64,000 nucleotides of DNA from Lachnospiraceae bacterium (lineage in GTDB: Bacteria > Bacillota > Clostridia > Lachnospirales > Lachnospiraceae), in NCBI GenBank assembly GCA_022792835.1, contig JAAWBT010000035.1, positions 610 to 64,609 of the forward strand, in the 5' to 3' direction. A program made the translations under genes and the position numbers. Below, piece by piece: positions 5,953 through 64,000 of this stretch (position 1 is the stretch's first letter; every line of letters begins with the position of its first letter). The notes under the pieces are model-generated. The model made no database searches. It was not told the DNA's origin and worked only from the letters and a program-made list of their open reading frames with translations.

Positions 5953-7348
5953 TTTGCCGCCTCCTTCTGCTCACGACCACACAGACCCCGTATCCCAAAA
6001 ATACCAGCGGAAAAACGCCGATCATCATTACCTTCAGGTAAGAAGCTGTAGACTCATTGATCGTCAGGTAATTATAGTTCAGAGATTTACTCCGGATTGC
6101 CACTGCTTCACGTTCACCGATCATAAAAGAAAGCGCATTCATGCCCAAATCCAGATTGGCGCCGGAAGAATAAGCGTTATACATATCATCAAGAAAATCA
6201 GAAGACGCAAACCATACAATCTGGCCGTCGCCGCCGCAATCAACAGATACTGCCGTCGCAAAGGGTCCATCCACATCTCCTTCTTCTTTCTCATAGGTTT
6301 CAATGGCATATCCGGCAGTTTTACTGTAAGACATTTCCGATGTGGTCAAAAGCTGTGTGACAGAGCCTGACGTATCTGTAACGGTCAGTCCCAGGGCAAT
6401 CGGTATAATGGCATAATAATTCCCCTCTGTCAGCGGGTTGGTAATCTCATGATCTGCCATTTCTGGTAAGAGGATATAAGGCTGTTTGAATGCATAATAA
6501 TTCCTGTCTCCCTCCACCACAATCCCTTCTTCCGCTTCCACGCCGTATTCTTCAAGCAGACTGTACAAAGTCGTCAATGCTCCCCCTTCTACTGGCCCTG
6601 CCATTACCATCAATTTGCCGCCATTTGCGGTGTATTCTGCCAGCATCTCCTTTTCTTCCTCAGAAATATCTCTGGTTGGCGCATAAATCAGTACCACGTC
6701 CGCTTCTTCCGGCACGGTATCTGAATTCAGCAAAGTGAATGTGGTCGTTTCTATATTCTGCTTTTCGATCTGTTCAGCAAACACAGCAGAAAGCTCCGCC
6801 TCGCCATGCCCCTTCGTGATATAAAGCTTTGGATGATCTTCACTGACTACATAATCAATGGCCGAAGTAATCATTCCCTCTCCGTCAAAAGCAGTCGTAT
6901 AGGAATAGGTCGTCATATCTGCTTCTGTCAGATAGATATCTTCATAGCTGATGTACCGACTGCTGTCTCCGCATTCGACAATTAGGCTGTTATTCGGAAC
7001 AGTCTCCGAAGTATATTGCTGTGAGAATGCCGGATAGACGTCCGGATTCTTCTTCACCACCTGGATATGTTCCGAAAGGCTTTCATATTTGGCCAATAGA
7101 TTTTCAATCACCTCGTCTTCTTCGTCCGCCTGAACCACCCAGTAAATGGTCACATCTTTTTCCAGCGCATTGACCACTGCTTTCGTATTGCTGGTAATGG
7201 AATACAGCCTGGCCGAACTGATATCCAACTGTGTCAATGTAGATGGCAGTACGGACGCCAGAACATTTATTACAATCAAAATTGCCGATACGATTCCTGT
7301 TAGCATCAGCGAATAAGCCCCGCCTTTTAATGCTATTTGATTCTTCAT
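5939..7348 (-). CDS. GldG-like ABC auxiliary protein
   Basis: LDIS..RLYSIT, GHGE, P..DISEEE, GGKL motifs; TM at both ends. Confidence 0.85.
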   Translation of the reverse strand: MKNQIALKGGAYSLMLTGIVSAILIVINVLASVLPSTLTQLDISSARLYSITSNTKAVVNALEKDVTIYWVVQADEEDEVIENLLAKYESLSEHIQVVKKNPDVYPAFSQQYTSETVPNNSLIVECGDSSRYISYEDIYLTEADMTTYSYTTAFDGEGMITSAIDYVVSEDHPKLYITKGHGEAELSAVFAEQIEKQNIETTTFTLLNSDTVPEEADVVLIYAPTRDISEEEKEMLAEYTANGGKLMVMAGPVEGGALTTLYSLLEEYGVEAEEGIVVEGDRNYYAFKQPYILLPEMADHEITNPLTEGNYYAIIPIALGLTVTDTSGSVTQLLTTSEMSYSKTAGYAIETYEKEEGDVDGPFATAVSVDCGGDGQIVWFASSDFLDDMYNAYSSGANLDLGMNALSFMIGEREAVAIRSKSLNYNYLTINESTASYLKVMMIGVFPLVFLGYGVCVVVSRRRRQNEAV

Positions 7349-60553: not shown

Positions 60554-61375
60554 TTACAGCTTCTCAAAACTCTTTCCGGTCACTTTTCCGGAATCGCCGG
60601 CCTGTTTTATTATAACACGAATCCTCTTATAAATCAAAACCGTAATCAGAGAAACCACGATTCCTTTTAACAGATTAAATGGCAGCACAGCCAAAAGCAC
60701 AAAGCTCCAGATTCCCGTGATGGCCGGATTGACTGCTGTTCCCATGCCGATGAGTCCTGCCAGGCTGTCGCTGGAGAAAAGATTCAGCACATTCATCAAA
60801 ATGACTGCCGCCGCCAGAATCACAAACTCCACTCCCATTCCCACCAAAATGGGATGGCTTCCCTTTTCTCTCCCATAAAAGAAGAACACCGGGAAGGCGA
60901 CCGCCGCCGTAAAAGCTCCCATAACCAAAAATCCCTGCCACGCCCCCTCAAAAGCCTGTGCATAAGTGGGCAGAAGTACATAAGCGTTTAAAAAACATCC
61001 CACGACAGCCATGGTGACAGTCCCCACCACGAGACCGAGAATTGCCCCTTTTCTGGTACGATTCTTCGTGTAGATCATCGCCGCCGGGATCACCAGGGCA
61101 CAGCCAATCAACAAGTTGGCCCAATCCCCCACCCCCATGGTGGTGGACCCCTTCAGCAGAAGCTTCAGAATAATCTTCAAAGCCTCAATGACAAATCCGG
61201 CCGCAGGCCCCATGGAAAACGCTCCCACCAATACCGGAATCTCACTGAAATCCAGTTCATAAAAAGGCGGTGCAAACCAGAGCGGGAACTCCAGATACAT
61301 AAGTACCGCGGCCACCGCCGACAGCACCGCGATGGTGACAAGGTTTTTCACAGTAAGCAGTTTTTCTCGTTTCAT
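60554..61375 (-). CDS. ribU: ECF riboflavin S-component with internal insertion
   Basis: LDFSE.P.L, PFNLLKG motifs; downstream of FMN riboswitch. Confidence 0.88.
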   Translation of the reverse strand: MKREKLLTVKNLVTIAVLSAVAAVLMYLEFPLWFAPPFYELDFSEIPVLVGAFSMGPAAGFVIEALKIILKLLLKGSTTMGVGDWANLLIGCALVIPAAMIYTKNRTRKGAILGLVVGTVTMAVVGCFLNAYVLLPTYAQAFEGAWQGFLVMGAFTAAVAFPVFFFYGREKGSHPILVGMGVEFVILAAAVILMNVLNLFSSDSLAGLIGMGTAVNPAITGIWSFVLLAVLPFNLLKGIVVSLITVLIYKRIRVIIKQAGDSGKVTGKSFEKL

Positions 61376-61555: not shown

Positions 61556-61633
61556 AAGCTTCCTTTGCCGTCTCCTGCTTTCTCATACAGCGCGCTGCCT
61601 AAAAATTTCCGCAGCAAATTCTCAGCAGACATA

Positions 61634-61748
61634 CCTTCTTCTCTCATCCAGACTATACTGTCGGTTCCGGAATCCAACCGGATCAACCGCCAAAGGCAGC
61701 TCGCGGACTATACCGCCGGTGGGGACTTTCACCCCGCCCCGAAGAACT
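61634..61748 (-). ncRNA. FMN riboswitch (RFN element)
   Basis: TTCGGGGCGGGGTGAAAGTCCCCACCGGCGGT...CCGCGAG...GATCCGGT...TTCCGGAACCGACAGTATAGTCTGGATGAGAGAAG. Confidence 0.97.
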
Positions 61749-61768
61749 TTTTTTATTTTGTGTTTTTT

Positions 61769-61797: not shown

Positions 61798-62142
61798 GAG
61801 TTTCCGTGGTTTTTTTGCATTTTTTGGCATACATCAAACCTTTTATCATCCCTTAGGACACACGTAAATCTATATATCTTCACGTAAGTGTACGACAAAA
61901 TTGTATAATTTCACCAAAGAGCTATAGACCATGTCTATTTTTATGAAATTAATTTGCGAAACTTATTATACGTCATCCCAGAAGACGGCTGGCATCAGCC
62001 AGTCGCTCTTGACATAGCCATCTACAACTGCTATATATAAAGCAAGGACGAAAAGCTTATTTTCAAGCCTTTCGCCCCAATAATAGAATAGAAAGGCTGG
62101 TAAATTCGGTTTTCACACCGCTTTTCCCAGCCTTTTGAGATT

Positions 62143-62876
62143 TCATGCAGTTACTGATAATAGGCATTCTTCCGTCGCTTTCTGGAGGCCTCTTTTCTGT
62201 ATCTTATTGTGTTTATATTCTCGTTTTAAATCCGCAAATGTTCCTTCTGCCCATATTTTCCTCAGCCGCATGATCCTTAGATAACCGCTGGTTCCTACTT
62301 TCTGGTTATTCCAGTAAAAAGCTGGATCATAAGCACTGGCAGGAATCCTGACTGTCCCCAGGTCTGTAGCACAGGTTACAAACATCGGGTATTTTTACAT
62401 TGTTTTTTTGAACGGCTATATAAACGATAATAGTTCTGTGTTGCTCTCTTGTAGATCATTTTCCCAGATACGATCCCAAGCTGTATACATTTCAGCACGA
62501 TCTCATTAAAAATTTCCCAAACTATACTGGCATCTTCAAAGCGTCGTTTTCTATTCTGGCTAAAATTGGAATGATCCGGTACCCTATGCATGAGGTCAAA
62601 GCCGCAAAACCAGCGATAAGCAAGGTTAAATGACACTTCCACTTCAATTCTCCGTTCTGATTTAATCCCATAGAGATAACCAATTAACAGAATTTTTATC
62701 AGGACAACTGGATCAAACGATTTTCTTCCAACATTAGAATAATAGGAGGCTACCTTTTCGTATATGAAATCAAAGCTTACACAATCTTTAATCTGTCTTA
62801 GGAGATGTCCCTTTGGAATCATAGAATCGATATCCAGAATTACCATCTGAATTTATCCGTTATGTTTTCCCATCAT
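62143..62876 (-). pseudogene. IS1182-family transposase remnant
   Basis: H.LR.I, GR...DP, YLYGIKSER, YRWFCG, PDHS.FS..R (N-terminal) and R.RK..AEG.FA..K (C-terminal); in-frame TAA at codon 8, frameshift, central DDE region missing. Confidence 0.88.
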
Positions 62877-62937
62877 AAAAAGAATCTCCCATAATTGATA
62901 TCATAAGGATACTATGCAGAAAGTCATTTTTCTTTAG

Positions 62938-62952
62938 TTTGTTCAACAGCTC
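62938..62952 (-). mobile_element. Probable left terminal inverted repeat of the IS remnant
   Basis: GAGCTGTTGAACAAA about 60 nt upstream of the transposase start; matching right end not securely found. Confidence 0.45.
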
Positions 62953-63185
62953 CTCTTTGAGATTGCCCCTAAAATTGATTTATTAAAAAAGACAGCCATG
63001 ATAACTATCTGAAAACTGAATAGCAGAGCTTAGACCTACAATGTCTAGTTCTAAAAACAGCAAATCACCAAATTATCCTAAATTCAGAAATCAAATGTGG
63101 ATTTATGTTATAAATTATTGTAAAGTAAATTAAATTTTCCCCCATCTGTCACCCCTGTATAGTACGGAAGGTTGGGAAACTTATA

Positions 63186-64000
63186 TTACTTATGTTTTTC
63201 AATATCTTCATATTGATGATATAAATCTTCTATTTGCCTCCAAGTTACTGGTGTACATTCAGCATAATAATTTTTACATTTTGTAAGGTAATCTTTCATA
63301 TAATTTCCGCGGATCAAGAAACATGTTTGATCGGTACCTAAACTTTGCACAATAATCGTTTCCACTTGTCCATCTTCATATTCTACAGACATGATTCGAG
63401 CTTGTCTGTCTAACTTAAAATATGTATCAGAATCATCTTCTGGCAAATTTTTTAATATAAAAACTTTATTTTCATCACTGCATTTAACCGCTGCTTTACC
63501 AGAATGATTAAAAATTCTTTTATTATAATCTTTAAATTCCGGAAAAAAACTTGATTTTCTTTTAATATGTGCTTTTATACCTTCTGTTGAAATAATATGA
63601 TAAAACTTATCACAATTATTTATAGCATCCATTAATATTTTAATGAATTGTTTTTCTTCATCCCAAAGTTGTTCTGCACCTAATACAATTGAACTGCTTC
63701 TTTGCATAAGAAATATTTGTTTACATCTACGATTTATAACCTCATTAGATAATAAATAATGATCTTTTTTACTGCAAATACTTTTTTTTATTACTGTTAC
63801 ACCAAATAAATCTGACAACTCCGATGCGGTCAAATGGACTTGTGGACTATATGGTAATTTTGCCATATATATAATTTTATTACGAATATCTTTTCTGAAT
63901 TCATCAACTGATTCTATAGAGTTAAATTCATAAGGAGTAGCACGAAAATGAGAAATATCAAATGGTAATTTATCAAGTCGTCTCTCTTTATTAATAATAC
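63186..64000 (-). CDS. AT-rich gene, 5' end outside window: NDT/TIR-like domain tail fused to unknown C-terminal domain
   Basis: Frame is open for 44 codons upstream of the ORF-track ATG: IINKERRLDKLPFDISHFRATPYEFNSIESVDEFRKDIRNKIIY-MAKLP... Confidence 0.75.
   Translation of the reverse strand, partial: IINKERRLDKLPFDISHFRATPYEFNSIESVDEFRKDIRNKIIYMAKLPYSPQVHLTASELSDLFGVTVIKKSICSKKDHYLLSNEVINRRCKQIFLMQRSSSIVLGAEQLWDEEKQFIKILMDAINNCDKFYHIISTEGIKAHIKRKSSFFPEFKDYNKRIFNHSGKAAVKCSDENKVFILKNLPEDDSDTYFKLDRQARIMSVEYEDGQVETIIVQSLGTDQTCFLIRGNYMKDYLTKCKNYYAECTPVTWRQIEDLYHQYEDIEKHK

Follow-up and report, generated by a model that had tools for sequence, protein, structure and literature searches.

TIR-STING (CBASS Cap12), TIR-SAVED and PycTIR/PycTM carry a TIR-type enzyme on a dimeric sensor that also occurs with transmembrane (TM) effectors. 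A constant domain combined with exchangeable N-termini of the NADase or membrane type is the layout of STING, SAVED and cNMP-binding receptors, and CBASS and Pycsar possess a linked CD-NTase or pyrimidine cyclase. Proteins that unite sensor and effector without a cognate synthase have also been described: Metis (MisA/MisC), in which the same sensor is paired with an effector that cleaves NAD or with a membrane effector (10.1101/2025.11.05.686725), and stand-alone TIR-SAVED (10.1101/2025.06.19.660554). DUF4062 is a demonstrated anti-phage NADase (10.64898/2026.09.04.749371), with further reports on Swarozyc (10.64898/2026.05.01.722283) and Evangelion (10.64898/2026.06.25.731849), and in retron Ec86 an NDT-like domain with a catalytic Glu is the abortive effector (10.1101/2023.08.16.553469). 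PLD domains are listed in Mokosh, Azaca and DISARM (PMC10952713, PMC13276650), and the available part of a Thoeris survey names phospholipases solely as putative effectors (10.64898/2025.12.03.692087). Finally, one computational sentence on APE (ParA) systems mentions an adjoining 'TIR domain fused to an inactive HKD domain' (10.64898/2026.10.19.760177).

Here we analyse a window of 64 kb (the whole stretch of DNA under study, G000:C83:610-64609) that ends inside a gene for a 362-aa protein, in which a TIR/NDT-like N-domain (residues 1-139) precedes a C-domain (residues 140-362) with a predicted PLD fold. It resembles the CBASS and Pycsar effectors in having a TIR-type enzyme on a dimeric sensor (here predicted) that also occurs with TM effectors; moreover, SfSTING (7un8) is a fold match of the N-domain (Z 11.5) and eight members of the PLD-domain family carry PF10137, the TIR of CBASS/Pycsar effectors. 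The sensor is different, however: it has a PLD fold and not that of STING, SAVED or cNMP-binding domains (Pfam gave no consistent match for the C-domain of 26 family members), and PADLOC models for a CD-NTase or cyclase had no match among 112 neighbours of 27 homologue loci, nor is such a gene present in the insert that holds the window's copy. With Metis the protein shares the single sensor-effector chain, the lack of an own synthase and the use of the sensor with different effectors, whereas the PUA-like m6dAMP sensor, metallophosphatase effector and MisB phosphatase given in the available Metis text are all missing here. The DUF4062/NIR systems Swarozyc, Evangelion, Vulcan and Vesta are likewise small single-gene NADases with an auxiliary domain. 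Some members of the PLD-domain family bear a DUF4062 N-domain, but the window protein does not, and where Vulcan has HEAT repeats and Vesta a phosphatase partner (10.64898/2026.09.04.749371), it has the PLD-fold domain instead; the main text of the Swarozyc and Evangelion preprints (10.64898/2026.05.01.722283, 10.64898/2026.06.25.731849) does not mention PLD or TrmB.

Retron type II-A1 (Ec86) has an NDT-like effector in common with our protein, but here no reverse-transcriptase ORF is found in the insert, no msr-msd RNA is matched (an FMN riboswitch is the sole Rfam match in the region) and the regulatory domain is of PLD fold. Thoeris consists of a separate ThsB TIR gene plus an effector with a signal-binding domain, whereas a TIR partner is absent from the window's insert and present in 1 of 27 loci (L022). 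The APE-associated protein, compared by its one-sentence description alone, has the same broad architecture; there it accompanies a multi-gene ParA system as an accessory gene, and that sentence does not present it as a swappable sensor. TrmB/TrmBL2, FAM83 (also without HKD), Nuc, NucT and Zucchini share the fold (Z 9.7-11.2, rmsd 3.1-3.7 A over 128-149 residues) and the predicted two-fold dimer at 6-13% identity, but the C-domain adds a beta-hairpin/helix insertion and has no HxK(x)4D, and TrmB-type proteins are fused to an HTH, whereas in the window's family the PLD-fold domain is fused to immune-type enzymes. No description of an NDT-PLD family was found in the literature (subscription journals were little covered). 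What appears to be new is a putative sensor of PLD fold, uncatalogued and swapped between effector types that are already known, with the APE sentence as nearest prior mention.

The part of the gene that lies in the window comprises the following features:

63186..64000, minus strand: in-window part of the 362-aa gene, residues 93-362 and stop (frame, start ATG, homologue coverage)
63858..64000, minus strand: tail of the predicted TIR/NDT-like N-glycosidase domain, residues 93-139, including LPFD...R...Y (Pfam, PADLOC, fold, Glu79 alignment)

The original prediction had held that the 226-aa ORF at the window edge is too short and that its ATG lacks a ribosome-binding site, and both statements proved correct. 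The minus-strand frame with its stop at 63186 is open up to the window edge (upstream of the 226-aa ORF it reads IINKERRLDKLPFDISHFRATPYEF) and, with no stop codon just past 64000, for another 274 nt up to the true start ATG at G000:C83:64883, with AAAGGGGA 7 nt ahead in the contig. The full product is 362 aa long and Met1 has a strong ribosome-binding site (AAAGGGGA), whereas inspection by eye shows nothing resembling a Shine-Dalgarno sequence ahead of the ATG at 63866. This start matches that of homologues: 57 of the 72 proteins in a homologue search span at least 93% of the 362 aa from a similar starting point (36-86% identity), the others being the gene itself, 5 partial matches, 5 that match in the C-terminal part only and carry DUF4062, and 4 that match in the N-terminal part only. 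In addition, mouse gut contigs from two other studies agree letter for letter with the gene start and the frame ahead of it:

L001:6486-7254: identical contig X2, 0 differences
L001:6369-6885 and 6903-7227: identical contig X4, 0 differences

The 362-aa gene is intact. Upstream in the same open frame (G000:C83:64884-65135, L001:6884-7135, minus strand) we observed a LexA-N-like winged HTH (PF01726, E 6e-4, under the cut-off) that has ATA in place of ATG behind a AAAGGTGG site. It has no stop before the 362-aa gene, so that gene callers produce a 436-aa fusion; we rejected this call as a real protein because none of the homologues carries the winged HTH and Met1 has its own strong ribosome-binding site. 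The letters of this frame are identical in the contigs of the other studies, and it is probably a decayed regulator. A promoter scan was no better than chance (19 against 14.1 +/- 4.0). Short pieces of RNA run X19 fall on the gene and likewise on the remnants of insertion sequences (IS), so that this run does not demonstrate transcription of the gene.

The N-domain had been called NDT/TIR-like on account of LPFD...R...Y, which is indeed located at 63968-63930 (L103 to Y115), and several lines of evidence agree with this assignment. A motif of the NPNVxYELG kind, expected further upstream, was found just beyond the window edge as NPNVLYEFG (residues 73-81), with the predicted catalytic Glu79. 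Pfam PF05014 matches the N-domain under its cut-off (E 4e-4; 20.9 bits against a gathering cut-off of 28.8), the PADLOC TIR effector model PDLC00733 matches at E 3e-9, and NCBIfam gave no match. In the AlphaFold2 model (pLDDT 86.8) residues 1-143 resemble TIR, MilB and NDT folds (Z 11.5-12.7, rmsd 2.5-3.2 A); the best PDB sequence matches are DNPH1/Rcl at an E of about 0.01. R42-A43-D44, D68, N73, N75, Y78, E79 and G81 are invariant in 34 out of 34 sequences, and Glu79 is conserved in all 58 motif-bearing homologues (4 of the 62 examined have no motif). Given the fold match, the invariant motif and the profile comparison, in which E79 falls on the Glu of Cap12-type TIRs (81.6%), the domain is by prediction an intact TIR/NDT-type N-glycosidase. 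By analogy its substrate is likely NAD+ or another nucleotide; the likeness to DUF4062 is weak (profile-profile probability 12.9%, and no match of PF13271 to the window protein), which makes NAD+ an extrapolation.

The C-domain and two of its motifs are located as follows:

63189..63857, minus strand: PLD-fold domain, residues 140-362, uncatalogued, without HKD motif, predicted homodimer, effector-swapped; proposed sensor
63381..63410, minus strand: D-R-Q-x-R-x4-E, residues 289-298, at the start of the strand that bears HxK(x)4D in PLD enzymes (register inferred)
63690..63713, minus strand: FLMQRSSS motif, residues 188-195, of which Q191 and S194 recur in all fusion types

It had been suggested that this part of the protein belongs to no recognised family and loosely follows a PLD/TrmB-type fold without HKD motif, and our searches bear out both points. 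Residues 140-362 had no match in Pfam or NCBIfam and no sequence match in the PDB, and PADLOC found no relevant model (a weak Cas9 cross-hit alone). Modelled by itself, the C-domain reaches a pLDDT of 93.6. A structure search of this model against 48,161 chains returned PLD-fold chains in all of the 25 best rows, followed by two rows of MITD1, and the best unrelated row had a Z of 3.9. The highest scores were obtained for FAM83B (Z 11.2), vaccinia F13 (11.1), NucT (11.0), TrmBL2 (10.7) and Nuc (10.6), at rmsd 3.2-3.7 A over 134-149 residues; with Zucchini included the range is Z 9.3-11.2, and Foldseek likewise points to the PLD fold. The folds of STING, SAVED and CARF are not among the matches listed, which by itself does not exclude a likeness.

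The catalytic motif of PLD enzymes is HxK(x)4D. It is missing from the C-domain, and at its position (a register derived from spacing and strand order, not from superposition) the window protein has QxR(x)4E: Q291-x-R293-x4-E298 opens the strand concerned, and the Q is invariant in 26 of 26 members. The QxR motif is missing in the Cap12-TIR clade and in a distant clade of an alignment across fusion types, so that ligands may differ between clades or QxR may be structural. Q191, in contrast, is present in all 48 rows of that alignment and S194, Y173, L198, E207 and H226 in most; we regard these six as candidate ligand-binding residues. Such invariant His, Glu, Gln and Ser residues could instead be catalytic, in which case the PLD-fold domain would itself be an enzyme whose active site has been remodelled (Q191, S194, E207, H226), and hence the real toxin or a signal-degrading, sensing phosphodiesterase. 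Some CARF and SAVED domains both degrade their signal and sense it, and the nuclease fold matches and two possible stand-alone copies of the domain (P0126, P0168) also agree with this view. Yet none of the aligned members has the His of HxK where the inferred register would place it, and the N-terminal enzymes retain their own catalytic Glu, as expected if they are the output; we consider an enzymatic role of the C-domain very unlikely.

When two copies of the C-domain were predicted together, the score was 0.78 against 0.00 for the best control, with at least 91% of contacts in agreement between runs and a pLDDT of at least 86. The mark set for a homodimer is reached by 20 out of 30 solved pairs and by 1 out of 23 single chains, but since PLD dimers have already been solved the pass may show likeness alone. 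The predicted interface contains the invariant residues M190, D289, R290, Q291 and G313, and D289-A292 form part of it; overall, conservation at the interface is not higher than in the rest of the domain (0.58 against 0.55, p 0.30), and Y173, Q191, S194, E207 and H226 are outside the set of named interface residues. In short, the PLD fold, the dimer and the loss of PLD catalysis are predicted properties.

An indication of a sensor role comes from the relatives of the C-domain. A profile of this domain, searched against 1.84 billion representatives, retrieved 101 proteins, the N-termini of which we classified by motif and hydropathy: 20 are NDT-like, 10 DUF4062-like, 8 of the Cap12/Pycsar TIR type, 12 have 1-2 TM helices (one false match), 5 are of other types and 46 are short or fragmentary. 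The false match, P0108, was rejected as a family member (it is an Ig-repeat protein that had been counted under TM). Pfam, run on 55 of the 101 proteins and one locus ORF, confirmed PF10137 in all 8 TIR proteins and PF13271 in 4 of the 10 DUF4062-like ones, and identified one NUDIX-NDT and one deaminase fusion; the six Pfam-negative DUF4062-like proteins align with one Pfam-positive member. The TIR clade matches the PLD-fold domain end to end (100%) and the distant clade matches its first half (97.8%).

In a C-domain tree of 48 sequences picked from the longer matches (unrooted, with seven long branches), the starred branches give at least 4 label changes for NDT, at least 3 for TM and at least 2 for DUF4062, and the 100/96 clade that includes the window protein holds five DUF4062 fusions among six NDT fusions. 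The C-domain is therefore attached to several effector types in relatives, with repeated swaps. This independently supports the effector-sensor reading of the original prediction: given the receptor-like layout of a constant domain with exchangeable N-termini, the PLD-fold domain is likely, by analogy, an infection sensor of a new kind.

Some members deviate from this general picture. In the distant clade (P0154, P0155, P0159, P0168) an extra, unassigned C-terminal domain follows the PLD-fold domain, ahead of which there is an NDT-like domain, a deaminase domain or nothing; in P0159 a Lys replaces the catalytic Glu. At L018:296-1480 the gene is split over two frames (a broken copy), and at L030:2648-4135 the same C-domain is found behind a further N-terminal region that is unassigned.

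Taken together, we propose a one-protein abortive anti-phage switch, a reading to which we give roughly an even chance. On binding a small phosphate-bearing molecule of host or infection origin, the PLD-fold dimer would cause the TIR/NDT-like domains to cluster; Glu79-dependent N-glycosidic cleavage of NAD+ or another nucleotide would follow and cause growth arrest of the infected cell. Since a synthase does not accompany the gene, the trigger is probably supplied by the host cell or by the infection itself. Candidates for the ligand would be nucleotides or short oligonucleotides released when nucleic acids are degraded, or a second messenger of the host, comparable to Metis and stand-alone TIR-SAVED.

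A small ligand would also fit the pace of evolution: the mean pairwise identity of the C-domain (0.562) is close to that of the enzyme domain (0.557), so the former evolves at no higher rate than the latter, in keeping with a ligand that stays the same. The auxiliary regions of Evangelion, in contrast, are divergent (10.64898/2026.06.25.731849). This difference bears on an alternative in which the protein is an anti-phage fusion as well, with a PLD-fold domain that recognises a macromolecule: a phage protein (as Swarozyc and Vulcan do) or single-stranded or broken DNA. Its attraction is that phage proteins (portal, lambdap79) trigger single-gene DUF4062 systems (10.64898/2026.05.01.722283, 10.64898/2026.09.04.749371), that the best fold matches include PLD nucleases and TrmBL2, a chromatin protein that binds DNA, and that a synthase is not conserved. 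Nonetheless, the invariant residues of the C-domain are small and polar, and its fusion to short N-termini with 1-2 TM helices parallels small-molecule receptors; recognition of a macromolecule seems unlikely to us.

Somewhat more tentatively than the switch itself, we suggest that the HKD-less PLD-fold domain may represent a new modular class of immune receptor beside STING, SAVED, CARF, SLOG and cNMP-binding domains. Such a receptor would read a hitherto undescribed nucleotide signal of host or infection origin at its dimer face, without own synthase, and would have been wired on several occasions to effectors of the NDT-like, DUF4062, Cap12-TIR, deaminase and membrane types. New sensor domains have been the route by which new immune signals were found. 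Given that the C-domain is small, well folded and uncatalogued, and that its natural fusions to NADase families give a fluorescent read-out, the hunt for the ligand is directly testable. If true, the proposal would explain, in a minimal setting, what the very widespread NPNVxYELG NDT-like domain does, and would show a nuclease fold reused as a receptor, though the ecological weight is limited because the family is rare.

The surroundings of the gene in the window had been described as AT-rich DNA beside a dead IS. This is accurate: 62001-64000 has a GC content of 0.33, the remainder of the window 0.46-0.55, and the neighbour at 62376-62846 is a truncated transposase. The relevant features are:

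61632..61750, minus strand: FMN riboswitch, left flank of the variable site (Rfam RF00050, 113.8 bits)
62376..62846, minus strand: truncated DUF772 transposase remnant in the insert, outside the system
Window position 61750 to G000:C83:68300, also L034:1464-6772: variable insertion site, from the FMN riboswitch to crp-asr

The AT-rich insert of about 5.7 kb has the FMN riboswitch, which precedes an ECF-transporter gene (60554-61375), on one side and on the other side what we take, naming its genes by eye, to be a crp-asrABC-like operon. Apart from the intact 362-aa gene it consists of the DUF772 transposase remnant, an integrase-core IS remnant and a broken NACHT-pentapeptide gene; it contains no intact partner gene, and its ends show no clear target-site or terminal repeats. 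Of 16 genomes of the genus, 4 have the two flanks adjacent to each other: three of these (G008, G016 and G011) have an empty site, and in G010 it holds two methyltransferases and a restriction-helicase gene (type II/IIG restriction-modification). A defence island that continues rightwards, as had been expected, was rejected, since the insert is short, consists otherwise of remnants and stops at the crp-asrABC-like housekeeping genes; with one intact gene plus remnants at a site that varies among relatives, it is rather a small decaying cassette than a long island. The broken NACHT-pentapeptide gene (bacterial NLR-like; L001:8765-9828, minus strand; L045) has an intact paralogue elsewhere in the genome, a frame of 968 codons at G000:C48:36082-38985.

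No further intact member of the family turned up in 40 relatives or in 400 genomes of the order, nor did a distant-clade profile find one in the 398 scored genomes of the class, and in 79 genomes of another phylum there was, besides the seed, one weak stop-interrupted match. The viral contigs scanned contain no homologue and the phage records no match to the C-domain. For plasmids 75 records match, none of them covering 80%, and the best 25 of the 75, those listed, match the N-domain alone; with the TIR variant there are 33 records, again none covering 80%, and with the distant variant none. We collected 31 homologue loci, 25 of them metagenomic and 6 from genomes (counting two duplicates or near-duplicates), among the listed neighbours of which there is no conserved partner gene. 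Of the 21 loci with flanks of 2 kb or more, 14 have a gene whose GC content is lower than that of its flanks by 5 points or more. Several loci are located in integrative elements or a prophage-like region. Housekeeping contexts, which would speak against a defence role if conserved, were encountered in part: many homologues do stand alone between housekeeping genes, but at a different location every time. The gene is mobile and patchy, and foreign-looking.

To quantify the association with defence genes we considered up to three genes on each side in 27 loci, 112 neighbours in total (a set outside which the TIR- and TM-type members fall, and in which many contigs are short). All PADLOC matches counted, 11 of the 112 neighbours score against 5 of 55 window genes; after removal, by judgement, of housekeeping cross-matches, 7 of the 112 neighbours and none of the 55 window genes remain (one-sided p 0.057), a suggestive enrichment that is weak and not significant. 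Together with the solitary copies among housekeeping genes, the lack of copies in viral contigs, phages and (for the C-domain) the best 25 of 75 plasmid matches listed, and the N-domain's likeness to DNPH1/Rcl in sequence and to MilB in fold, this outcome could be taken to mean that the protein has no defence function. It would then be a stress toxin or a metabolite-regulated nucleotide hydrolase, in which a TrmB-like ligand domain controls a salvage or sanitising enzyme of the NDT/DNPH1 kind. We judge this quite unlikely, given that the partners swapped onto the C-domain are immune effector types, that the gene is rare, low in GC and differently located each time, and that its insertion site is shared with restriction-modification genes; an anti-phage role remains the preferred reading.

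A possible signal maker is nearby in three loci: a CYTH gene in L014, a TIR gene in L022 and, by eye, an NTase-like fragment in L008. In L022 the TIR gene is co-oriented and two genes upstream, and in L014 the CYTH gene is directly downstream, as would suit a two-part signalling system in which the TIR/NDT-like domain makes a signal (like ThsB of Thoeris) for an effector elsewhere, or in which the protein receives the signal of an unlinked synthase. Still, partners of the TIR or CYTH type do not recur among the listed neighbours of the 27 loci, fusions with TM helices only cannot produce a signal, and the window's insert is without intact partner, which makes a two-part system highly improbable.

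Several of these loci show further particularities. At L022:3008-6178 the TIR_2 gene (ThsB-like, PDC-S66) is followed in the same orientation by a small helical membrane-like gene and the NDT-PLD gene, a possible Thoeris-like arrangement of one occurrence. The fragment in L008 (L008:7888-8181, minus strand) has 98 aa with a nucleotidyltransferase-like GS...DxD (by eye; no Pfam match) and lies on a prophage-like contig. L014:1214-5623 is a low-GC, co-oriented cluster of LytB/IspH, NDT-PLD, CYTH, FRG and guanylate kinase genes. An FRG gene also precedes the NDT-PLD gene in L003/L004, where both adjoin, on a clostridial integrative element, a gene (L003:4970-8038, minus strand; also in L004) for a protein of 1023 aa that contains an RNA-dependent RNA polymerase domain of eukaryotic type (PF05183, E 6e-17). 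Finally, L005:10320-14191 holds a low-GC cluster of four genes, one of them with a SIR2 domain, in an integrative element shared with a homologue.
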